Source: a cyanobacterium endosymbiont of Epithemia turgida isolate EtSB Lake Yunoko (GTDB taxonomy: Bacteria > Cyanobacteriota > Cyanobacteriia > Cyanobacteriales > Microcystaceae). Taken from it: a DNA stretch of 32,000 bases. The stretch is from assembly GCF_000829235.1 (NCBI RefSeq), contig NZ_AP012549.1:1-32000 (forward strand). Reading direction: 5' to 3'. Position 1 is the first letter of the stretch; the number at the start of each line of letters is the position of its first letter. Below, one piece after another: positions 3,374-20,414 of this stretch. The position numbers and the translations under genes were made by a program. The notes under the pieces were generated by a model, which worked only from the letters and a program-made list of their open reading frames with translations, did no database searches and was not told where the DNA came from.

Positions 3374-3439
3374 TTTGTAAAGATATCTTAATTGAGACTT
3401 AAACTACTATAAAATATAATTATACATGTGAGTTATAAG

Positions 3440-4175
3440 AAGTATAAAACACAGTTATTCTTTCCGATACATAAGCTAAACCACAACGATATTAATGAGG
3501 TTTACTAACTTTTAGTTTATATTCTGTTGATGGTGAGTGATTGTTTTCAATTCTTGTTAATAGAGCTTTTAAAAAAGTTATATCAACAAGGTATTTTCGG
3601 TTTCTAAATAATTTATTTTCTGGAATAAATACACCGTCATTGTTGCTTGAAGTCAACTCAAAATCAATAATTGACCGCAGTCGTTTATGATTAGATGTAG
3701 TTCAACTAAAAAAATGTACTACAAATTTTAATCCCGTCCAACTAAGCTTTCAAAAACTCAAAATATTCTACTACAAGATTGATGAAAAACTTTGATTGGA
3801 GTAGAGTTTGTGAAACTAATTCATATTATTTTTCCTTTGCAAGTCGGTAAAAAACCGTACAGTCAAATAATTACCTAGAGCATAAGATCCACAAAGCGAT
3901 GATAGTTTACCGGATTAGGAAATGTTTTTTTGCAATGGAGAAAAATATTTGATGTATAAAATCATCTGAAGGTCCAATATTCATGAATTATGAAAAGTAA
4001 TTATAATGTTGGTAACTTGACCTCTACCCAAACGAGAACAGCATATTTTTCTCAAATAAATTCCGTTAATTTTGGAACGGTGTTACAGTGCTGTTTGAAT
4101 CTTTTTTCGATTAATTGCACAATTTTTTCTATGTTAAAATCAAGTTTTTGCAAAAAATATCTTGATATTCTAAGG
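3440..4175 (-). mobile_element. Degenerate IS982-family transposase gene (pseudogene, 3'-truncated or internally deleted)
   Basis: Minus-strand translation gives LLFIIHEYWTFR*FYTSNIFLHCKKTFPNPVNYHRFVDLM ... ISFTNSTPIKVFHQS..VFESLVGRD*NL*YIFLVELHLIINDCGQLL. This is colinear with IS982 transposase blocks (tILiLFHqSGYrtFKhFY...fPnLVSYnRFVeLM; ISfiDSTPi.VCHn; GKSSmGWFYGFKLHLiINdkGEll). Multiple stops. The 69-aa plus-strand ORF 3990..4199 is antisense to it. Ends are approximate. Confidence 0.6.
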
Positions 4176-4306
4176 ATTATTACGATTGATTTAAGATAAA
4201 TATTGAAATTAATTTTTTTGTTTTTAAGAGTTTTAAGTTAAATAACTGAGGATAAATTTTTATGAGGCCTGTAACTTATTGATTATTGTGGTTATATTTC
4301 CCAGTT

Positions 4307-4350
4307 AATGAACTTTAAACGAATGAACTTTAAACGAATGAACTTTAAAC
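4307..4350. repeat. Tandem repeat, 15-bp unit aatgaactttaaacg x ~3
   Basis: Direct reading: aatgaactttaaacg / aatgaactttaaacg / aatgaactttaaac. Confidence 0.95.
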
Positions 4351-5547
4351 TTAAATGGTTATCCCTAACTGACCAACAGTGCCGAGAATCTTATTACATT
4401 TAATTTATTTAGTCAGCAACGAATAATGAACTTGATTAATCGTTAGAGGAACATTATCTGTTTACTAAGAAATCATAATCAAAAACAATTGCATTAGCGG
4501 CTACGGCGGACTCAAAAGTATTCTAGAATTTTTCTCTCTGTCGTCAGAACCATAACTCCAAAACGAACTATCACCCCAAGCCTAAGCACTAATCCCTAAA
4601 GTGTAAAAATTGATATTTCTAACCAATAGTTGATGATCTTCTATAAGTTTTATCGTGATGGGCTTTACCAAATTGTTTTACAATAAAACACCTTTTCTGG
4701 TTTAGGCTGAACATGCTCTGAATTTTTTCTTTATAATTGCTGCTTTAGCGAATCTAAGTGAGTATTTACTCGATAATAAATAATATCCAATGTTTAAAAC
4801 AATGTAATATCTACTATTGTCAATTTAATTTGTACTAAGTCTTAATGAGCTGCCTAGTTGACAACTTTCCTTAGAAAAATTATTATAGTCTTTCAGGGGC
4901 ATAGCAAGTAAGCTTTGTTAAACCAGGTAAGCACGTCCTACTGAAACCTAACTTTTAAAAAGCAAGTTACTCCACTAAGTAGGGAATATATTACCTACCC
5001 TGAAATGGGTCACTATATGGTTGAGTTGGTAAAAGATGTGGGAGATGTGGGAGGAAAGTCTTGATGTAGTCATTAATCTTCCGAAAGTTAAATTCTATTT
5101 TTAATTTACCCTAACCTTGGGATGTAAAAATTTCTTTGGATCTATGCTAGGAAAAATAAAAGCTTGGTGGTATATGAAGGCAAGGAAAAACATTAAGGGC
5201 TTTTGGGAAAAGTTAGTAGAAAAGGCACGAACAATCAACTCTGATTCAACCATTGTTGAAAGTTTTAATTGGCAATAAAGGTAATGAACTGGTTGATGGC
5301 AAACCTCGTTTGTTAGAGATTTTGGGTGAATCTGCAGATGTTTTTGTTTTAGATTAAAATTATGGTCAATATTTTAGGGTTTGAATTCTCATTTGTGTTT
5401 ACTGTTACTGCACAAACATACCTTGGCTTCTGTTGAGATATGACCTCGTTCTCGTTCACCTCCTCCTGTTTTTTCCAGAGCGCTTAAAAGTCACTGATTG
5501 GAAGTTGCCAGAAGTGTTGATGCTTATTGATGTTGGTTAACCTATAG

Positions 5548-5600
5548 TTCTCCGTTCTACTTTAAAATATTTCTCCGTTCTACTTTAAAATATTTCTCTA
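5548..5600. repeat. Tandem repeat, 23-bp unit ttctccgttctactttaaaatat x 2 perfect copies plus a degenerate partial third
   Basis: Units 5548-5570 and 5571-5593 are identical. 5594 onward (ttctctattcg...) is a decayed partial copy. Confidence 0.95.
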
Positions 5601-6004
5601 TTCGTTTTCTTCGAGAACCCCTTAAAGTCTATTCAAGAAAATAATTAGGACTATTGCATATTATAAAATTAACTATCAAATTAGTTACATACACATTACA
5701 AGTATTATTACTTATTAAATAATAATACATAAAGTCAATTATTAGCCTTCGATTGCTTAGGATGACTACTCACTCTTTAGTGGTATTTTTTCATGTATTT
5801 CACCGAAGTTTAATTAAGAATTAACAATACTAACACTTGTCAAGAAAAAATTATTACAATGAAAATAACGAGGTTATCATTGAAACCTCATTGATGACAA
5901 TTTATTGAGTTCAGGTCAATCAGCCATTTTTATGGAATATAGTACTCCGTCAGGGAAGGTTGTAGAGCCTCCGGCTCACAGGTGGGCTTATATTATAGGA
6001 ACCA

Positions 6005-6997
<993 letters not shown>

Positions 6998-7922
6998 TTA
7001 TATTGATACTTCATTACCTGAAAGTTACTATTTGAGAAGCAATCTTATATCACTAAACCATAGATCTTTATTCTGGGGTTATTGTTGGGACAAATGTTTA
7101 TCAACTTAATATAAGTGTATTTATTTAGTGGTTGAAGAGATGCTAAAAGCAAACTATTTGCTCGTAACTTGAGTATATTTAGGAGTTATAAGATGGCAAA
7201 AGGCTAAAAAACTGTCTTTCAGGACAGCTTATTTTAATAATTAAATTGCAATACCTTAGTAGTTGGACATAAATAATACTATATTGAAAAGTATTAAAAA
7301 ATTAAATACACTATTAATTAATACCCAAGATTAGTCAAAAAAAATCGAATAAAGCTCAAAATTAATATCTGTATTAGTTCGCTTTAATTTAGCATAAAAC
7401 TTTAACCTAGTTAGATAAAATCTATACTTTTTTATTTTAAATAAAAAATATTGCCACTTTTAAACTATTTTTTTCTCAAAATAATTAGACAACTTCCATA
7501 ACTGCTATTGCTAATATATATTCATGGTCTTTTTTTTTCCATTTGTTCTTAATGCCATCGAATTCTAGAGAATAAGAATAAAAGCATCACTTTGAACGCT
7601 CTTTAAAGCTTATCCATATTCAAACCTTTTTTTCTATCTTTAAGTCGAGGAAGTACATTTGAAATAAATGGCAATTTCCCTCAGTTTTCACTCTATTGCC
7701 GAGAATATAATGACACTAACTCTATCTTTTGTTCTTTAAGCAACTTATTTAAGCTTGACTTAACCCCAATAAAGTCTTTTCTTGCTCCGACTTGAAAAAC
7801 AATCTTAAGCGAATAGATGATACTAGTTGCTCATAATTATTGTCGCTAACTCTATTTATACACTTTTATATTTGTTTTTCATTATCACTTTTCAATATAA
7901 AACCTACATTAATATAGTACTA

Positions 7923-7985
7923 TTTATATGTATCTAACTACTTATTTTTTAATTTTTAAAAAATAAGTAGTTAGATACATATAAA
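7923..7985. repeat. Perfect 30-bp-stem palindrome (hairpin) with a 3-nt loop
   Basis: Bases 7923-7952 (tttatatgtatctaactacttattttttaa) are the exact reverse complement of 7956-7985. Loop is ttt. Checked base by base. Confidence 0.95.
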
Positions 7986-8075
7986 GCATTACATGGTAAT
8001 ACCTTTATCTTTTATTTATTAAACAATTGTTACAGCTAATCTATAAGAGTTGCTTGTTATACAATTTTAACTTAA

Positions 8076-8120
8076 TCACTAAGAGTATGGTCTAATTATA
8101 TTAGACTATGCTCTTAGTGA
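8076..8120. repeat. 21-bp inverted repeat with a 3-nt loop and two transition mismatches
   Basis: tcactaagagtatggtctaat / tat / attagactatgctcttagtga. That is 19 Watson-Crick pairs plus two T:G pairs. Confidence 0.9.
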
Positions 8121-8254
8121 TGCGATAGTAAATTACTTTTATCTATCTTAGGTTTTCTATTTTTAATAATGGAACAACGGCAATTAAAAATTAAGCTTAT
8201 ATTTACCGATAAAAAAATGATTTTATCATAAAAAAATAATATTTATAATTATTG

Positions 8255-8294
8255 TAATAATTAGTATTCTTTTAAAGAAAAATACTAATTATTA
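8255..8294. repeat. 14-bp perfect inverted repeat with a 12-nt spacer
   Basis: taataattagtatt (8255-8268) and aatactaattatta (8281-8294). Confidence 0.85.
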
Positions 8295-9160
8295 ACTTAT
8301 ATTAACGATTAATATTGATTATTATTTAATAATACAGGTTTTGTTCTAAATATCTAAATTCAAATTTGCAAACTTTAACGATTATATAATTTAGTACTTA
8401 TAAAACAATACTACGATAACTATTTCAAAAAAGTAAGACGTAAAGCTAAATTACCTTCTCAACATAAATTAAGAGAAAGTTTATTAAGTAAATATAGATA
8501 AGCAATCAGTAGAGTAAAAAAAGTCAATAAAACAGTTACAAAAATTTATATATTTTGAATATTCGATATTATACATGTTTTAAATTTAGTCATTAATAGT
8601 TTGAATTAAAGAATATTTAAGAGATAAAAGTTGATTAATTAAGTTTACTGATTATTTTATAGTAAGTAATTATTTTAAATTTTCGTTGATTTAATCTCTC
8701 AAAGAGTTCTTGGGCAATAAATCCTCAGTATTTCAAGAGTTTTAAACTCAAGTATTACCTTAATTCAGGAACAGATTTACGGTCATCTATGTTGCCATAA
8801 GTTAATTTAAAAGCCAATAATTGACTGTCAACTTATTTCTATAATTTCTCTTTTATGAGTCTCTAAAAAACAGCACACTAAAATCATTATCCATGGCATA
8901 TTTTTCCCTACTATTAAATGAAACTATTATCTTTTTTTGATAAAGGTTTTCAATTAAGGAACAGAATAACAATGCCATTTTAATCTTTGATAGAAACAAT
9001 CTAGATAACAAAATACTTGGGTCAATATCGAGATATAATTTTATATTCATAGCATCTTACCTTAATAAATGCCGCTTCTGAAATAGATTCGCTACTTGTC
9101 TATCTCTCCCAAAATTTTTATAAAATTTACCTTGATTAATGTTGCCCCTGATGGATGACC

Positions 9161-9190
9161 AATAAGAAGGCGGACATTACCCGCCCTATT
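9161..9190 (-). terminator. Candidate intrinsic terminator downstream of acnB
   Basis: On the minus strand: GGCGG-gtaatgt-CCGCC followed by ttcttatt, about 60 nt after the acnB stop. It is the only GC-rich stem in this AT-rich tail. The stem is short (5-6 bp). Confidence 0.4.
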
Positions 9191-9244
9191 ATTCTAACTT
9201 AAGACTTCTTTTGGAATACCCAAAATATCTTCAATCTTTGTTAT

Positions 9245-11824
9245 TTATTCTAACGGAATAATCCGTCCTTCGTCTTGAAAACCTTCAATTTGATTGAAAT
9301 TTAAATAACAATATAATTGACTAGAAAAGGGTTTAATTTTTTCTGTGATAATGGACATGTATTCCTCAACTGTTGGAATTTTTCCTAATAAGGCACACAC
9401 CGCAGCCAATTCTGCAGAACCAAGGTAAACTTGAGCCCCTTTACCCATACGGTTATTAAAGTTGCGGGTAGAAGTGGAAAACACTATCGTATTATCTTCT
9501 ACACGTGCTTGATTACCCATACATAGAGAACATCCAGGTATTTCTATCCGCGCATCAACAGCTTTAAAAATATCATAAATACCTTCTTCCCGTAGCTTTT
9601 TTTCATCCATTCGAGTTGGGGGACAAATCCATAAACGTACCGGTAAACCGCTATATACTCCTATTTTTTGTCCTTCTAAAATACTAGCAGCAGCGCGATA
9701 ATGTCCAATATTTGTCATACAAGAACCGATGAATACTTCATCAATTTTTTCTCCTGAACATTCGGACATTAGTTTAACATTATCTGGGTTATTTGGTGCA
9801 GCAACAATAGGTTCTCTAATCTCACTTAAATTAACTTCAATAGTATCTGCATATTCAGCATTTTTATCTGCTTCCAGCAATACAGGATTTTTCAACCATT
9901 GTTCCATTTTTTCTGTACGACGTACCAAAGTTTTAGAGTCTTGATAACCTCGCGCCACCATATTTTTAATTAGGACAACATTGGACTGTAAATATTCAGC
10001 AATAGTCCCTTTTTCCAACTTAATAGTAGCTCCTGAACAAGACCTTTCTGCCGTAGCATCTGTTAATTCAAATGCTTGTTCAACCTTTAAATTCGGTAAA
10101 CCTTCTATCTCCATGATACGTCCATTGAAAATATTAATTTTTTTCTCTTTAGCAACGGTTAATTTACCTTCTTGTATGGCTACCCAAGGAATAGCATTAA
10201 CAATGTCCCGTAAAGTTACCCCAGGTTGTAATTCCCCAGTAAACTTAACCAACACTGATTCTGGCATATCCAAAGGCATTACTCCGAATGCTGCTGCAAA
10301 TGCAACTAACCCTGAACCTGCCGGGAAAGATATACCCAAGGGGAAGCGAGTATGGGAGTCCCCCCCAGTCCCGACAGTATCGGGTAATAACATTCGGTTT
10401 AACCAAGAGTGGATGATACCATCCCCAGGATGCAACGCGACCCCCCCACGGGTTGAGAAGAAATCCGGCAACTCTTTATGAATTTTGACATCGACAGGTT
10501 TGGGATAAGCGGCAGTGTGACAAAAACTTTGTAGAGTTAAGTCTGCATTGAACCCTAGACAGGCTAACTCTTTTAATTCATCACGGGTCATAGGCCCTGT
10601 GGTATCTTGAGAACCTACAGTCGTCATTATGGGTTCGCAAGAATCTCCTGGACGAACCCCAGGTAAACCGCAAGCTTTACCAACTATTTTTTGTGCTAAG
10701 GTAAACCCAGGTATTTGTTCGTCCTCGATAGAGGAGATAGGACGAACAAAAATAGTGCTAGGTTCAAGTCCCAATGCCTGGCGAGTTTTATCAGTTAAGG
10801 CGCGTCCAATAAGTAAAGGAATACGTCCCCCTGCGCGTACTTCGTCTAAGATGGTTTCAGGTTTAGGGATGAAGGTTGCAATAATTTTTTCTGCTTCGTT
10901 AGTAATTTCTCCTTTGTAGGGATGGATAATGATAACGTCTCCGGTTTCCATTTTGCTGACATCGCATTCAATGGGAAATGAACCGGAATCTTCAGCCGTA
11001 TTGAAAAAAATAGGGGAAATTTTTCCGCCAATAATGTATCCTCCTGAACGTTTGTTGGGGACAAAAGGGATATCATTCCCAATATGCCATAAAATAGAAT
11101 TGATGGCAGACTTACGGGAAGACCCCGTTCCAACAAGATCCCCTACGTAAGCAATGGGATGGCCTTTATCTTTGAGTCTAGCAATAGTTTCTATTCCTTC
11201 TGGAACAAGAGATTCTAGCATAGTTAAGGCGTGTAAAGGAATGTCCGATCTTGTGGTTGCATGGAGGGCGGGGGACAGGTCATCGGTGTTGGTTTCTCCA
11301 CAAACTTTGAAGACAGTGACGATAATGGCTTCGGGGACTTTAAGTTTATTGGTAAACCAGGAAGCATTAGACCAAGCATCGATGACCTGTCTGGCATAGG
11401 GGTTAGTTTCCGATAATTCTAAGACTTCATTAAACGCATTGAAGACTAAGATAGTTCTACTTAATGCGGTGACTGCTGCTGATGCTAAGTTGCTGTCGGT
11501 AGATTTAAGCAGTCCGACCAGTGATTGTACATTATAGCCACCTATCATGGTTCCTAATAAGTTCACTGCTTCTTGAGGGGAGATTGTAGTACAGATTATC
11601 TCACCTTTAGCTACCCCTGTTAAAAATCCTGCTTTGACATAAGCCGCTTCATCTACACCAGGGGGAATTCTATCTCGTAGTAACATTAAAAGTTCTTTTT
11701 TTAGTTCTTCAGGAGGATTTTTAAGAAGTTTACATAGTTGCGAAGTTTGTTCTGCCGTTAAGGCTAAAGGAGGAATTCCCAACTTTGCGCGTTCCTCTTT
11801 GTGTTTACGATAACTTTTTAACAT
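9245..11824 (-). CDS. acnB: Aconitate hydratase B (bifunctional aconitase 2 / 2-methylisocitrate dehydratase)
   Basis: 859-aa ORF with the typical AcnB N-terminus [30 protein letters not shown]. Fe-S ligand regions are present ([17 protein letters not shown]). AGGAG Shine-Dalgarno sits 8 nt upstream of the ATG. TAA stop. Confidence 0.96.
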
Positions 11825-11861: not shown

Positions 11862-11900
11862 ATTTATAGCCTTAAAGGTGATACCTTTAAGGCTATAAAT
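11862..11900. promoter_or_regulatory. 18-bp perfect hairpin in the acnB 5' leader / promoter region
   Basis: atttatagccttaaaggt / gat / acctttaaggctataaat, located 38-76 nt upstream of the acnB ATG. Confidence 0.5.
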
Positions 11901-12914
11901 TTTATTCTGTTACAATATAGATAGTGTTATTGAAAATCTTATAAAGCTAAGCTATATTTTTTTGCAATTTGATAAAATTGAGATGTTTAATTATACTTTT
12001 TTTAGTAACCTCTTATAGTTTTATACAATATTTTTTTATTTATTAGATAATGGTAAGTTTAATTATTTATAGTTAACTAAGCTATATTTTTTATGTTAAA
12101 TATTAATTAATCTACTCTTGGATAGAGTATTAATATACGTTTAAATAAAAAATATATCTTTGTTTTAAACAACATCAAACTTTTAAAAATCTATTTTTTT
12201 TTCAATTTTACTATTTCTGTAGTTAAATTACTCTTAATATAAATCTTATACTAAGTAATTCTAAATAAATATTTATAATACTGGATATCTAATTATATTA
12301 AAAAGTAAAAGTCATATTAATTAAGCATTCATAGTAATTTAATAATCAAAATATTAACAATTTACTTATTTTTTTAGATTTTTTTATAAAAATAATTTAT
12401 TTAAATTTAACTTTTTTAATATACTTATCAAGTAAATTTTTTATAGTATTCTGGTGTAACAGATAAATATTAATCATGTCTAATTGTTGTAAAGATTAAC
12501 TCAAAATAGACTTGACTTGTCTTGAGTAAAAACTGTTAAATTCAAACATAAAATTGTACCTATAAATTTTATAAAAGTAGAAATAAGAACAAATAACAAT
12601 ATAACTATTTAAAGAAGAAATAAGCCTACGAGTTATATGTTATAAATAACTAGGGATAGACTAGAGAAAAATGACTCAATAATGTAAAACAAAAACTTGG
12701 TCTATAAAATAACTGAGGAATTTAGTAAAGCTTTCTGTGAAGAGTCAAAACACTGCACTAGTCACAACTATAAGCTAGTTAATAAAAACATTAAGTTGCT
12801 GCAGTATTTCACTTACTGATTACCTTTTGGGAGGTATTTATATATAATTGACTCGATTCGTTTTTTATGTGCGCTCCCGATTATTATGGCGTAGATTATC
12901 TTATTTATCTATAG

Positions 12915-13473: not shown

Positions 13474-14010
13474 TTATTGACAACCGTATTATCCAACTGC
13501 AAAACTATTTTTTCGATGCAGGGGTGATTAATAACGCCATCGACCAAATTGTGTCAAATTGGGGCAGCTTCAAGATTTTTAACTTTAATTTAGGAATATA
13601 ACGCTGAATTGTAAAGGCATTAAATACGGGTTAAAAGTAGTAAAGTGACAGTAAACTTAGGTGCTGCGGTAATTTGTAATTTTTTAAAATCAATACATCT
13701 TTTTTTAGCAAATAAAGGCTATATTTGCACTTTTTTGTCGTAAATACGATAGCTGTTCATGATATTAAATAAGCTGGTAACTCCTTTAGGGGTTGATATA
13801 AAACGGGTAGTTTCTGTAAGTGAAGGACATCGATGTTACACTCCACTGGAGTTAGTACAATGGCTCCAGCGGGAGTCAAAAAAGTTCGTGTGGAGGTTAA
13901 TCCTGCTATAGTGACTTAATTGTGTGATAGCGGTTCCGTAGCACCAGTAGATATTCTCAGTAAGGATAAAGAGTCGATTTATATTTTAATTAACATCTAT
14001 TAGTGTAATT

Positions 14011-14046
14011 ATTTTTTAGAATTAAAATAATTTAATTCTAAAAAAT
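14011..14046. repeat. 16-bp perfect inverted repeat with a 4-nt loop
   Basis: attttttagaattaaa / ataa / tttaattctaaaaaat. Confidence 0.9.
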
Positions 14047-14259
14047 AGAACTTTAAGCTTAGTCTATTTTTATTTATTAGAGTATTTAGTTATCTGCTGA
14101 GTATATTTTTGTGGGTAAATTCTAGTTGAATTAGTATAGTAGAATTATTCTATCTATTTTTAAGGCAGTATTGATTTTAAAACTTGGTTTAAAAATATTA
14201 AATTTTAAGAAAAAAATCTAATATAATAGAACTAAAATCTAATATAAAATCAAGAAAAA

Positions 14260-14303
14260 TTTTATATATAAATATTATTATTCAATGATATTTATATATA
14301 AAA
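14260..14303. repeat. 16-bp perfect inverted repeat with a 12-nt spacer (low-complexity TA-rich)
   Basis: ttttatatataaatat (14260-14275) and atatttatatataaaa (14288-14303). Confidence 0.8.
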
Positions 14304-14773
14304 AAAAAATAAGATTAGCACATAAATTTATTTTACTGCAGAATAAATTTCAATAAAAATGAGAAATCAACTTTTTTTTAAGGAACTAAAAATTATAGAT
14401 ATATATTATATCTATATCAAGGTCAATAAACTCATCTATTTTAATCATGCCTATTTAATTATCTTTAACCTCAAAAAGTTCAATTCAAATATAATCAATA
14501 CCATGTAATCTCAATGGTATAAATCAGAGATGAATAGATATTGATAGACAAATATATTGGTTTAGAGTTTTGTTAAAAACAGCAATTTTAATCATATTAC
14601 TTTATAAAAAATATTCCAAATTAGCTTTTTTAAAAAACATCAATAACAATAAATTATATTAGGTATTTCAAAATTATTAGAATCAGTATATCTTAAATAT
14701 TTAATAAAAAAATAAATAATGAATTAATCTTAATATTTAGCTTCAAAAACTACAATATTATTTATTAAAACAA

Positions 14774-14832
14774 AAATATAAATAAAATTCTAAGTTTAGA
14801 GTGTATCTAAACTTAGAATTTTATTTATATTT
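14774..14832. repeat. Perfect 27-bp-stem palindrome with a 5-nt loop
   Basis: aaatataaataaaattctaagtttaga / gtgta / tctaaacttagaattttatttatattt. Checked base by base. Confidence 0.95.
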
Positions 14833-14980
14833 ATAATACAAGAAACCTGATGATAACTATAGTATTTTTTATGAAGTAAAAACTAGAATAAACTTGTATA
14901 GCCTATTAGTAAACTTTGAGGATTATCCATCCATGAACCAAAACAGCGTTAAACTGACAAAGCGTTTGTCTAGTTCAATG

Positions 14981-15033
14981 AAAAAATTTTTAATTGTACC
15001 AAAAATTAAAATTGGTACAATTAAAAATTTTTT
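14981..15033. repeat. Perfect 22-bp inverted repeat with a 9-nt spacer
   Basis: aaaaaatttttaattgtaccaa / aaattaaaa / ttggtacaattaaaaatttttt. Confidence 0.95.
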
Positions 15034-15237: not shown

Positions 15238-15354
15238 ATGCTAATCCTAAAAATTGCAGTTTATATAGTCGTTGCTTTATTCATTTCTCTGTTTGTCTTC
15301 AGTTTTCTATCGAGTGACTAAACTCGTAACCCTAGACGGAAAGATTTTGAGTAA
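15238..15354 (+). pseudogene. psbI: Photosystem II reaction-centre protein I (PsbI) gene with an in-frame TAA replacing codon 28
   Basis: An AGGAG sits about 11 nt upstream of ATG 15238. Translation is [37 protein letters not shown]. From memory, cyanobacterial PsbI reads [38 protein letters not shown]. The TAA at 15319-15321 sits where the conserved Pro codon should be. Confidence 0.88.
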
Positions 15355-15466: not shown

Positions 15467-18019
15467 TTGATTTTTATCGAAAAGATGCCCCCATTCGTTC
15501 CGCCACCTAATCCGCCCGCACTAATCCAACCTATAGCCCTTGACCCTCAAGGCAATTGCCTGGAGATTCTGAATAAAGGATTGTCCACTCACACCATCCT
15601 TGGAAAACGTCCCCCCCTTATTTCTCAGATCCCAATTTTGATGCTCGAACCTCCATCATTAGAGTCGTCTGAAAAAATCCCAGCGACAAAACCCCCTGGA
15701 GTTATTGAATTTTATCTGTCTGACCCCAAAGAAATTACCACTAAGTCTTTACCCCCTAATTCTTCATCTGAAGACAATAGTGCTAGGACATTAGGGAATC
15801 CGATTTCTGTCGGTCAACCGTCTTCAACAAAAAGCACATCAACAATGATTAATCCAGTTCCTAACCTGGTCTTTGGGCTCAATCAACGTCATGACAGCTT
15901 CTCAAATACAGTCCATCGTCTCGTTACTCGTAAACGAAGAGGGCCAATACAAGAATTTAAGCTCCTAACCTCTTCTACACCTAAAGGACAAGAAACCTCT
16001 ATAAGTCAACAAACATTGGAAATTATTCCTGAATCCTCACCGGAACTAGATACCGCTTCAATCCCAGAAGAAGCCATAGGGGTAGTGGAATTGATTGCTG
16101 ATCGTCAAGAATATGATTCTAAACAAGAGGTAGTCTACGCCGAAGGCAATGTGGTCATGCGCTTTGCTAATGGAGTTCTATTAGCAAAGCGCATGCGCGT
16201 TAATCTCCCCGATCAATTTGTTGTTGCCGAGGGAGAAGTAGTACTAGAACGAGGAGAACAAACCCTACGCGGAGAAAAGTTTGAGTATTATTTTGTGCAA
16301 GATCAAGGGGTGGTCTTCAACGCTAATGGGGAGATTTATCAACCTACAACAGGAAAAGACTTTTCGCCAAGATTACCCAACGATTCTACTAACGATCTTA
16401 TTCCCAACCAAACTTTAAATGAACGCTTAGCGGTAAATCAGCCTCTACAACGAATCACTACTACTGAAGGGTTTCGTTTCGGAACTTCCTTTGATTTTGG
16501 AAAGGAAGCCTTAGGACTGGGAAGTGATGTTCCTAATCTACCAGCGACCCAAGTGCCGCCTAAAGGAGGACAAATCAATCGTATCCGCTTCCAGTCTGAA
16601 CGAATGGAATTTGATGGAGATGGATGGAGTGCCACGAATGCTCGTTTAACTAATGATCCCTTCTCCCCCCCTGAGTTAGAAATTCGAGCAGAAACAGCAA
16701 CATTTCGCAATATTGCTCCCTTGGTAGATGAGGTAAAATTGACTAATTCGCGAGTGGTGCTTGATCAAACAAATTCCTTTCCCACCCAAGATCGGTTGAT
16801 TTTAGATCGGCGTGATCGCCAACCTGGGGTAATTTCTTTTGGTTATGATGACCGAGATCGCGGAGGATTGTATGTGGAACGAGGCTTTAATATAGTTGAT
16901 GATGATATGGTTAGTTGGGAACTTAAGCCCCAATATTACATCCAAAAAGGATTATTTCCTGACAGTATTACTACAGACAATCCCAATACTGATCTCTTTG
17001 ATGCAGACACAGACGACATTGATGCTATTAGTCCCCCAACATTCGGACTTATCAACAGAGTTGAGGCTAACTTTAGTAAGAACACTAAATTATTTTCCCG
17101 AACCTCACTGACGAGTCTAGATTTTAATAACCGCACTGAAGAACATATCCGAACAAAAACCTATTTTGAACAGAAGGTTCCCTTGTTCAGTATGGATAAT
17201 GATTTGCGATTTGAATATAATTATCGTGAACGTCTTTTTAATGGCTCCTTGGGTTTCCAAACTGTCCGGGATAGTTTGGGGTTGCTTTTCGTGTCTCCTC
17301 AAATTCCTCTTGATCAGAAAGGGTTACTGCGGCTGAGTTATCAGGCATCTCTGCAAAATGTTAATGCCGACACGGATCAACCAGAGTTACTCGCCCCAAT
17401 TCGAGAAAATAATCGTGTTACCCTCTTTCGTACCCAAGGAGCCGCATCGGTAAGCCGACCCTTTATGTTATGGGTAGGGAAAGCCTTACCCCCAACTTCT
17501 AAAGAAGGGCTGCGTTACACTTCTACTCCTGTACTACCTTTTGTTCAACTTTCCACCAGTGTGACAGGAGTGGCCAGCCTCTATGGTAATGGTGATTCTC
17601 AACCTTCGATTTCAGGTAGTATTGGAGTCTCAGGACAATTGGGCAATTTTTCCCGCCCCTTTTTCGATTATACAGGGTTTAATCTTTCTTTTAGTCAGGC
17701 ATTGCGCGGAGATCCTTCTCCATTTTTATTCGATCGTTTTGCCGATCTCAAAACCATCTCTTGGGCATTAACCCAACAGCTATATGGACCTGTACGCTTT
17801 GGGGTTCAAAGCGCCTTAAATATCGATACTGATGATGAAATTAACACGGATTTATTCCTTGAATATAGTCGCCGTACCTACAATATTCTCCTACGTTATA
17901 ATAGCCGTCTTCAAGTAGGTTCTATCAGTTTACGAATCAGCGACTTTAATTGGAGTGGTGATCCAGGTCCATTTGACGGGACGGGAATTCGTCCAGTTAT
18001 TCAAGGAGTTCCCCGCTAA
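15467..18019 (+). CDS. lptD: LptD/OstA-like LPS-assembly outer-membrane protein (cyanobacterial long form); start codon uncertain
   Basis: 850-codon ORF. Contains an OstA-N-type repeat block VELIADRQEYDSKQEVVYAEGNVVMRFANGVLLAKRMRVNLPDQFVVAEGEVVLERGEQTLRGEKFEYYF. This follows a Pro/Ser-rich N-terminal region and precedes a long beta-rich C-terminal domain. Candidate starts are TTG 15467 or ATG 15485; neither has a clear RBS. No signal peptide is visible (see findings). Confidence 0.65.
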   Translation: MIFIEKMPPFVPPPNPPALIQPIALDPQGNCLEILNKGLSTHTILGKRPPLISQIPILMLEPPSLESSEKIPATKPPGVIEFYLSDPKEITTKSLPPNSSSEDNSARTLGNPISVGQPSSTKSTSTMINPVPNLVFGLNQRHDSFSNTVHRLVTRKRRGPIQEFKLLTSSTPKGQETSISQQTLEIIPESSPELDTASIPEEAIGVVELIADRQEYDSKQEVVYAEGNVVMRFANGVLLAKRMRVNLPDQFVVAEGEVVLERGEQTLRGEKFEYYFVQDQGVVFNANGEIYQPTTGKDFSPRLPNDSTNDLIPNQTLNERLAVNQPLQRITTTEGFRFGTSFDFGKEALGLGSDVPNLPATQVPPKGGQINRIRFQSERMEFDGDGWSATNARLTNDPFSPPELEIRAETATFRNIAPLVDEVKLTNSRVVLDQTNSFPTQDRLILDRRDRQPGVISFGYDDRDRGGLYVERGFNIVDDDMVSWELKPQYYIQKGLFPDSITTDNPNTDLFDADTDDIDAISPPTFGLINRVEANFSKNTKLFSRTSLTSLDFNNRTEEHIRTKTYFEQKVPLFSMDNDLRFEYNYRERLFNGSLGFQTVRDSLGLLFVSPQIPLDQKGLLRLSYQASLQNVNADTDQPELLAPIRENNRVTLFRTQGAASVSRPFMLWVGKALPPTSKEGLRYTSTPVLPFVQLSTSVTGVASLYGNGDSQPSISGSIGVSGQLGNFSRPFFDYTGFNLSFSQALRGDPSPFLFDRFADLKTISWALTQQLYGPVRFGVQSALNIDTDDEINTDLFLEYSRRTYNILLRYNSRLQVGSISLRISDFNWSGDPGPFDGTGIRPVIQGVPR

Positions 18020-19634: not shown

Positions 19635-20414
19635 TTATTGAAATCGGATTAGTTGAATCCGATAACGTTGTTTTTTAGTAAAAGTAACTTCCCCGACTTC
19701 TAAACGTCCTTTACCTCGGACGGCAATTAAATCCCCAGATTCAACAGTATGACTTGTCTGAGTAATGTCTTTCCAATTAACTCGTACATCTCCCGAATTA
19801 ATTGCATTAGCCATTTTACTACGAGACATCCCAAAACCTGCTGAGGCGATCGCATCTAAGCGCATAGATGCTTCTACAGTAGTCATTTTCTTGGTTTTAG
19901 GAGAATGGATTTTTAATTCATTTAATGTTATTAATTGGGTTTTCACCGGAACTGAACGCACCTGAACAAGGGAAATTTCAAGAAATTTCCCTTGTTCAGG
20001 AACTACTATTACCTGCGCTCCCCGTTCTTCTAGCACTATGATATCTCCAACCTTTTCGTGGACGATTCCTGTTCCTAAAATTGCCCCTAAGAAGTCTCGA
20101 TGGTTAGCAGGATCAAATAGAAAGTTTCCAGCAATACACAAAGCAGCTAGTGGAATTTCGGAAACATCCAGAGAAATTTCAGAACGAGCTATACTCACTC
20201 GTTGCCGTTCTGCTTGAGGATAGCCTCCCCATGCCACAATTTCAACTTCAGCTAATCTTTGAAATAGTCCTTGAACTTCAACGATGGCAGGAGGACAAAG
20301 AAAGTCACTGACTACGATTTCCCAAGTTTTTAAGGCTATTTCCGCTTGATCAAGAATACGGGCAATCGCTTCTCGATTTTTAATTCCTTTTAACAATTTT
20401 TCTTTAGGTAACAT
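19635..20414 (-). CDS. YlmH-like RNA-binding S4-domain protein (the family annotated as 'photosystem II S4 domain protein' in cyanobacteria)
   Basis: 259 aa. N-terminus resembles YlmH (ILDQAEIALKTWEIVVSDFLCPP...AWGGYPQAERQRV). C-terminal S4 domain: MRLDAIASAGFGMSRSKMANAINSGDVRVNWKDIT..ESGDLIAVRGKGRLEV. Confidence 0.8.
   Translation of the reverse strand: MLPKEKLLKGIKNREAIARILDQAEIALKTWEIVVSDFLCPPAIVEVQGLFQRLAEVEIVAWGGYPQAERQRVSIARSEISLDVSEIPLAALCIAGNFLFDPANHRDFLGAILGTGIVHEKVGDIIVLEERGAQVIVVPEQGKFLEISLVQVRSVPVKTQLITLNELKIHSPKTKKMTTVEASMRLDAIASAGFGMSRSKMANAINSGDVRVNWKDITQTSHTVESGDLIAVRGKGRLEVGEVTFTKKQRYRIQLIRFQ

Follow-up and report, generated by a model that had tools for sequence, protein, structure and literature searches.

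The 63-nt palindrome at positions 7923–7985 of the window, the 32,000-nt stretch of endosymbiont DNA analysed here, is very likely a scar left by replication template switching (quasi-palindrome mutagenesis) in intergenic DNA that is decaying and effectively neutral. It is young and probably non-functional, and its presence can be explained without selection for a folded structure. The mechanism itself is established, and the modest novelty lies in its apparently high activity in a nascent organelle lineage.

Regarding its structure, the palindrome consists of a left arm at 7923–7952 (TTTATATGTATCTAACTACTTATTTTTTAA), a TTT loop at 7953–7955, and a right arm at 7956–7985 that is complementary to the left one at 30 of 30 positions; the perfect 30-bp stem with a 3-nt loop reported in the preliminary description is therefore confirmed. 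The GC content of the stem is 13%. Folded as single-stranded DNA, the region reaches -26.8 kcal/mol, against -6.3 ± 2.0 kcal/mol for dinucleotide shuffles (z = -10.2; none of 200 was as good), and across 60 dinucleotide shuffles of the window, made block by block, no perfect stem with a loop of at most 10 nt exceeded 14 bp, the longest per shuffle being 10–14 bp. The palindrome is far beyond chance, as the preliminary description has it; it is also not isolated, the window having seven perfect hairpins with stems of at least 16 bp. Stems of 30 bp are tolerated in SbcCD-proficient bacteria, and inviability or cleavage in E. coli needs arms longer than ∼100–150 bp; the earlier idea that SbcCD-type nucleases have been lost is unnecessary because the stem is well below the SbcCD-sensitive size, and the literature searched makes no mention of SbcCD or RecBCD genes.

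The host type of the window is a diatom spheroid-body (diazoplast) cyanobacterium, and its flanking genes are cyanobacterial; they include AcnB (9245–11824, minus strand), 91–92% identical to the proteins of the Epithemia clementina and Rhopalodia gibba endosymbionts, a Wzy-type ligase, DUF3769, a sigma factor, and others. The palindrome lies inside a 5.9-kb desert free of ORFs (3400–9245), which had been called the most AT-rich of the window; this does not hold, as the GC content per kilobase is 25.9% and 21.8% over 7001–9000 and 18.6% over 14001–15000. GC skew in the window tracks gene orientation, and it is uninformative on an origin or terminus. A six-frame Pfam scan of 6801–9240 returned nothing beyond a decayed DDE_Tnp_1_3 (IS5-like) transposase remnant at 8653–8826 (minus strand, E = 3.6e-7), ∼670 bp from the palindrome; a short paralogous fragment of this remnant occurs 5 kb away at 3814–3884, and both are insertion-sequence relics. 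A tblastx search of 3380–9240 against ∼150 free-living cyanobacterial loci detected zero pseudogene remnants.

As for the relatives, the comparison set comprised eight distinct endosymbiont loci, found via the members of the AcnB 90% protein cluster. L161 and L162 are one sequence, represented by CP076462.1 and by the Logan read assembly of SRR25945676; their AcnB is 99% identical to that of the window, and the DNA of L161 is ∼97% identical overall, with substitutions alone amounting to 0.67% in coding and 3.07% in non-coding positions. L163 is a JGI metagenome contig (AcnB 96% identical); L002, identical to L167, is the spheroid body of R. gibba, a lineage with just 72–78% identity to the window in the desert; L171 is that of R. 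gibberula (AP018341); L172 is identical to L173 (CP192514); L001 is that of E. clementina (EcSB), and L003 is uoEpiScrs1. Metagenome scans for close relatives gave no match to a conserved flanking 24-mer, and a best AcnB match of 83%; an exact look-up of the AcnB of the window returned no record.

Large, lineage-specific deletions affect the desert: 755 bp (window 6826–7581) are absent from L161, ∼1.36 kb (7537–8895) from L163, and ∼0.9–2 kb (∼7324–8378) from L001, L003, L171, and L172. The DNA around the palindrome is kept in three lineages only, the site being lost by deletion in five of the eight relatives (L001, L003, L163, L171, and L172). The desert is not all junk, because it retains in syntenic position the nitrogen-stress sRNA NsiR4 (RF02677; 5724–5789, plus strand, Rfam score above the gathering threshold). 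At least four other spheroid-body genomes have NsiR4 at the syntenic place (L161 15223–15288, L002 15998–16063, L001 15449–15514, L172 14750–14815). Elsewhere in the window, psbI has an in-frame stop at codon 28 (15238–15351, plus strand), as in L161 (6515–6628), whereas an intact psbI of 38 codons is found in CP192514 and in the endosymbionts of R. gibba, R. gibberula, and E. clementina, although spheroid bodies are reported to be non-photosynthetic.

Comparison of the orthologous loci in sister strains, the check proposed in the preliminary description, dates the palindrome and shows that its right arm is derived. The R. gibba site reads TTTATATGTGTCAAATTACTTATTCTGTA-TTTTTTT-AAAAATTAC TTTTTTAAAAATTAAAA CCATTA, and it shares with the window the left arm (24 of 30 positions; L002 13900–13871, reverse strand, with collinear upstream flanks), the loop, the T-run/A-run core, and the downstream flank (CCATTA vs GCATTA), so that the left arm is ancestral in place. 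What is absent is the outer 21 nt of the right arm (7965–7985, AAGTAGTTAGATACATATAAA), where the R. gibba endosymbiont has unrelated A/T sequence, TACTTTTTTAAAAATTAAAA, followed by the shared flank CCATTA; identity to the window is near-random over the right-arm region, against 80% for the left arm. The segment 7965–7985 is the exact reverse complement of 7923–7943 (21 of 21 positions), an event with a probability of ∼1e-11 for that 21-mer under the local composition; the putative switch template, 7923–7943 (TTTATATGTATCTAACTACTT), is found in L002 with 4 substitutions.

Between these two segments lies the seed quasi-palindrome (7944–7964), ATTTTTTAA-TTT-TTAAAAAAT in the window and ATTTGTAAA-TTT-TTTAAAAAT in L161, where 8 of 9 positions pair. 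Its core, ...TGTA(T)TTTTTTAAAAAT, is at the same place in L002; hence, the seed was not made by the copying event. The return point is AAA|GCATTA, with AAA as the return microhomology by direct sequence reading. The TTT loop, which is not self-complementary, is unchanged in all three taxa, and the absence of a loop inversion fits a nascent-strand snap-back that left the loop uncopied.

An ancestral left arm and a right arm that is its inverted copy together give the four-point pattern of a replication template switch, and the site combines an exact inverted copy, an outgroup with the source and without the copy, a mutation cluster, and a seed with return microhomology. The proposal that a template-switch or snap-back error perfected a quasi-palindrome is thus borne out by the ancestral left arm, the seed, and the derived inverted copy. 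It should be noted that the ancestral state of the right arm is given by one outgroup lineage (L002 = L167), which has a 15-nt tandem duplication of its own, TTTTTTAAAAATTA(C/A), at L002 13842–13871 (reverse strand), where the window gained the inverted copy; this suggests that the A/T-run seed may be a slippage hot spot in both lineages.

The orthologous half-site also bears on a mobile origin, in which a palindromic element of the MITE, REP, or RPE-like type, or a solo remnant of one, would have inserted here. Mobility is frequent among long AT-rich palindromes of reduced genomes, the decayed DDE transposase is close by, and the Microcystis loci of the control set bear a repeated element with a 16-bp stem. 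The palindrome is instead single copy: no second copy of the arms was found in the 32-kb window at up to three mismatches, and none in 173 related loci save the orthologous site, while the other hairpins of the window differ from it in sequence. The flanks, ...GTACTA and GCATTA..., have no common repeat and no target-site duplication; moreover, left arm, loop, and seed are orthologous in the outgroup, which has a half-site in place and not an empty one. Hence, a mobile origin is extremely improbable, and the earlier statements on the lack of flanking direct repeats, the lack of similarity to other palindromes of the window, and the exclusion of a MITE family copy stand.

Regarding the age of the palindrome, the L161/L162 version, ...CTTATTTGTAAA-TTT-TTTAAAAATAAG..., pairs at 29 of 30 positions, with a G.A mismatch in the old seed. 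Sequencing of endosymbionts after amplification can yield inverted chimeras; the palindrome, with three substitutions, recurs in the independent CP076462.1 and in the Logan assembly of SRR25945676, so that an artefact of assembly or of whole-genome amplification (an inverted chimera, for example) has a negligible probability. The template switch would then have occurred after the R. gibba lineage had split off and before the window and CP076462 separated (∼3% non-coding divergence since). It follows that the suggestion of a very young palindrome holds in part: it postdates the split of the R. gibba endosymbiont, but it predates the split from a strain that is ∼3% diverged in non-coding DNA. 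As judged from these genomes, the palindrome is young but not strain-specific, and the 30/30 state is confined to the window lineage.

Three substitutions within 11 nt are specific to the window when compared with L161/L162, namely 7948 G>T, 7950 A>T, and 7958 T>A, and the L161 state is taken as the original switch product because TGTA is common to L161 and L002. The change at 7948 mends the mismatch, and those at 7950 and 7958 flip pair 28 from A:T to T:A; the 29/30 palindrome is thereby turned into a 30/30 one, with pairing restored or kept by every change. If three substitutions were placed at random on the L161 sequence, a perfect palindrome would result with P = 3e-4, and at least 29 pairs would remain with P = 0.005. 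At 3% divergence, the arms should receive ∼0.9 substitutions per lineage (P of none = 0.40), so that the survival of complementarity is unsurprising, and the non-random aspect is the direction of the changes. The three substitutions are not expressible as one simple inverted copy or switch.

At the level of the polymerase, the following course may be inferred. The ancestor would have had the weak A/T-run fold-back that L161 still displays around the TTT loop, and the nascent 3' end, ...AAAAAT, would have snapped back onto ATTT(G)T during synthesis. The polymerase would then have copied 21 nt of upstream sequence in reverse complement, from 7943 back to 7923, and rejoined its proper template at the AAA microhomology, with a few ancestral bases overwritten; this single event would have produced the 29/30 palindrome. 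One or two more corrections templated by the hairpin, involving the three bases within 11 nt, would later have led to the 30/30 state in the window lineage.

Other hairpins of the window have comparable histories. The one with a perfect 27-bp stem at 14774–14832 has the loop GTGTA in the window and TACAC in L161 (∼7039–7098): AAATTCTAAGTTTAGA-GTGTA of the window exactly reverse-complements TACAC-TCTAAACTTAGAATTT of L161, and AAATTCTAAGTTTAGAGTGTA is likewise the exact reverse complement of TACACTCTAAACTTAGAATTT in L161. A single template switch in the window lineage appears to have overwritten an imperfect arm and inverted the loop, a textbook case, and this event (14790–14805) was the sole result of a strict automated scan for template switches between the window and L161.

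Multi-base perfecting like that of the palindrome is seen at three further hairpins. The perfect 22-bp stem at 14981–15033 is imperfect in six of six aligned relatives, and the window has four specific changes there (G>T, +G, C>T, A>T; one is a 1-nt insertion), all pair-creating. At 14010–14047, a perfect 17-bp stem has an ancestral right arm and a left arm rewritten in the ancestor of the window and L161; in L161, a loop change lengthens the stem to 20 bp. The third, with a perfect 19-bp stem at 19961–20000, lies in an apparently intact YlmH-like CDS (19635–20414, minus strand); its right arm is CCCTTGTTCAGG in the window, CGCCATTTCTGG in EcSB, CTGCAATTTCAGG in the R. gibba spheroid body, and CCGCTATTTCGGG in uoEpiScrs1. 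The hairpin arose by a clustered rewriting of one arm; RgSB and CP192514 also have this derived arm, but with a compensatory swap of one pair from G:C to C:G. The encoded peptide changes from PE(I/M)A(E/K) to PEQGK, the replaced residues being ∼141–143.

A 16-bp stem in the DUF3769 CDS (16156–16195) consists of an old 13-bp stem plus one C>A of the window and L161 lineage. The 22-nt arms at 8075–8121, 90 bp downstream of the palindrome, have two mismatches, both of the G.T type; the sequence is the same in L161 and does not form a hairpin in L002, and it is interpreted as an older, once-perfect palindrome that would be eroding by C>T. Finally, an 18-bp stem at 11862–11900, 38 nt upstream of the acnB start, is conserved across the endosymbionts, among which it has a compensatory T:A to G:C pair; unlike the other hairpins, it is a candidate for a real regulatory element.

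Lineage-specific, multi-base perfecting of hairpins is also found in L172, L163, L001, and L002. At L163 7815–7859, six substitutions in 7 nt (TCAAGCT to GAAACCC) complete an 18-bp perfect stem inside a conserved ORF of 281 residues (window ORF 1170–2018); the site is imperfect in all seven other genomes. In L172 (CP192514), a 19-bp perfect hairpin containing G+C (12627–12669) starts just before the acnB end and passes the stop codon; it was perfected from the weaker GGGCGG...CCGCC stem of the other genomes, and AcnB has 876 vs 859 residues.

When the window is compared with L161, substitutions amount to 6.2% in the seven hairpins (9.1% with gap columns counted), but to 3.1% in non-coding and 0.67% in coding DNA; the hairpins are mutational hot spots, not conserved elements. 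The same process appears to operate throughout this genome and those of its sisters, in coding as well as non-coding DNA, and would account for the excess of long perfect hairpins.

RecA-type conversion usually needs substrates longer than 30-bp arms with a 3-nt spacer. Recombination between the arms (gene conversion), or mismatch repair on an extruded cruciform, would have the same outcome, namely arms that are kept identical by concerted evolution; large inverted repeats of plastids and sex chromosomes are homogenised by arm conversion (PMC5941160). Such processes could not make a right arm de novo from unrelated sequence, and the loop inversion at 14774–14832 is a hallmark of template switching and not of conversion, so that this explanation is very unlikely.

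The last explanation to consider is a functional RNA or DNA structure with its pairing under selection, for instance an sRNA of this lineage, a cruciform bound by a protein, or an element serving replication where dnaA is lacking, as it is in all spheroid bodies. Pair-preserving changes are also expected under selection for structure, and a compensatory A:T to T:A flip together with a repaired mismatch, between strains only ∼3% apart, has this appearance; the predicted fold is very stable, and NsiR4, a real and conserved sRNA, is located 2 kb away in the same desert. However, by contrast with NsiR4, the hairpin is confined to the window and L161/L162: L002 lacks it, and the five genomes with deletions have lost the site altogether. 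The divergence inside the palindrome (3 of 63 positions) is not below the non-coding background. In addition, perfecting occurs in hairpins of coding genes and of other deserts as well, which argues for a mutational cause and not for many separate functions, and template switching yields compensatory-looking changes without selection (PMC8794818).

Searches for functional signals were consistent with this. Terminator-like sites in 7300–8700 numbered 0, and the palindrome has no T-tract on either strand and no intact gene end nearby; promoter-like matches were near the shuffle level (16 vs 11.4 ± 3.0); and only generic miRNA-precursor models of Rfam matched, with 21–35 bits against thresholds of 65–171 (best 35 vs 90). 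The view that complementarity is maintained because the palindrome acts as a structure is thus not supported, and a function of this type is improbable; a neutral template-switch footprint suffices.

As for the frequency of such hairpins, the eight endosymbiont loci have 11.3 perfect stems of at least 16 bp per 100 kb; the closest free-living relatives have 0 in 129 kb, and other cyanobacterial loci, totalling 2.1 Mb, have 1.4 per 100 kb. These counts are indicative only, since the elevated rate is drawn from ∼180 kb of orthologous and partly non-independent sequence. Five Microcoleus pairs with 6–7% divergence had zero such stems. A looser 12-nt scan of 17 genome pairs, noisy and underpowered in AT-rich DNA, gave 10 reverse-complement matches for the endosymbionts vs 6 for the reverse-only controls, and 1 vs 4 for the free-living pairs; no conclusion is drawn from it. 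Between two strains, the apparent density of ∼3–5 events per ∼420 substitutions looks high, though it is uncalibrated. There is a hint of unusually active template switching in this nascent organelle lineage.

Two recent surveys report the replication and repair genes of spheroid bodies as largely intact, with the exception of dnaA (bioRxiv 10.64898/2026.03.19.712447) and of RNase HII and one photolyase (PMC12903740); in yeast, loss of RNase H2 specifically raises the mutations that perfect quasi-palindromes (PMC3820800). It is conceivable, though rather doubtful at present, that spheroid bodies have an unusually active template-switch regime that continuously makes, re-perfects, and flips long hairpins, in deserts and within protein-coding genes too, maybe via the loss of RNase HII and of DnaA-dependent initiation, and that this is an organelle-like signature arising early in organelle formation. 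If true, it would provide a ready source of new structured RNAs and of multi-residue protein changes, and a mutational signature resembling the hairpin inversions of plastid spacers. The losses of dnaA and RNase HII, both reported for all spheroid bodies, can be linked in a testable way to a specific mutational signature also shown by plastids.

Taken alone, the palindrome amounts to a neutral scar left by a textbook mutation process; nevertheless, it is an unusually clean natural example, with the seed, the 21-nt copied tract, the 29/30 intermediate, and the 30/30 end state kept in different genomes. The palindrome and the other hairpins jointly suggest that a visible part of the sequence change in a young nitrogen-fixing endosymbiont comes from template switching, including replacements of 2–3 residues within intact genes. 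For the annotation and phylogenetics of spheroid-body genomes, each such cluster should be scored as one event, and a long hairpin should not be taken as evidence of function.

When compared with known systems, the palindrome resembles Rho-independent terminators only in being an intergenic stem-loop; it differs from them in the 13% GC of its stem, the lack of a T-tract, the far longer stem, and the lack of an intact gene end nearby. With MITEs, REP/BIME, and the palindromic elements of Rickettsia, it has in common the AT-rich hairpin DNA, intergenic and sometimes coding, of reduced genomes; unlike them, it is single copy, without target-site duplication, and half ancestral, and the hairpins of the window are each different.

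Small inversions associated with hairpins were reportedly described in plastid non-coding DNA by Kelchner and Wendel in 1996. The flip of the loop at 14774–14832 (GTGTA vs TACAC) between close relatives is of the same kind as these plastid inversions, which occur in AT-rich spacers (an example is given in PMC6824564). Plastid cases are usually loop inversions between pre-existing stems and not the creation of 20–30-bp stems, and the TTT loop of the palindrome itself, unlike theirs, is not inverted.

Footprints of template switching have been documented as arm homogenisation, de novo perfect stems, spacer inversion, and multi-base compensatory changes (PMC8794818, PMC5453318, PMC5941160, PMC8604942, PMC7202029). 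Those switches that create or maintain hairpins were described by Löytynoja and Goldman in 2017 (PMC5453318), Monttinen and Löytynoja in 2022 (PMC8794818), Lavi et al. in 2018 (PMC5941160), and in yeast (PMC8604942); the hairpins analysed here share with them the perfect stems made in one step, the later multi-base "compensatory" fixes, the spacer inversion, and the excess of perfect repeats over expectation. Their subjects were rRNA and miRNA genes, Proteobacteria, yeast, and primates, whereas the present one is a cyanobacterial endosymbiont; in the literature searched, no template-switch hairpins were described for cyanobacterial endosymbionts or nascent organelles.

A close parallel to the origin proposed for the palindrome is given by quasi-palindrome mutations, known from the model of Ripley in 1982 and from the QP hot spots of thyA and lacZ in E. 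coli (PMC7202029, PMC6357072). In both, an imperfect repeat is perfected by a multi-base change templated by the other arm, with a short seed stem and a return at microhomology. The reporter cases were observed directly, whereas the event at the palindrome is deduced from comparative genomics, and it differs from them in its long copied tract of 21 nt, in the final stem of 30 bp, and in its setting, the neutral junk DNA of an endosymbiont.
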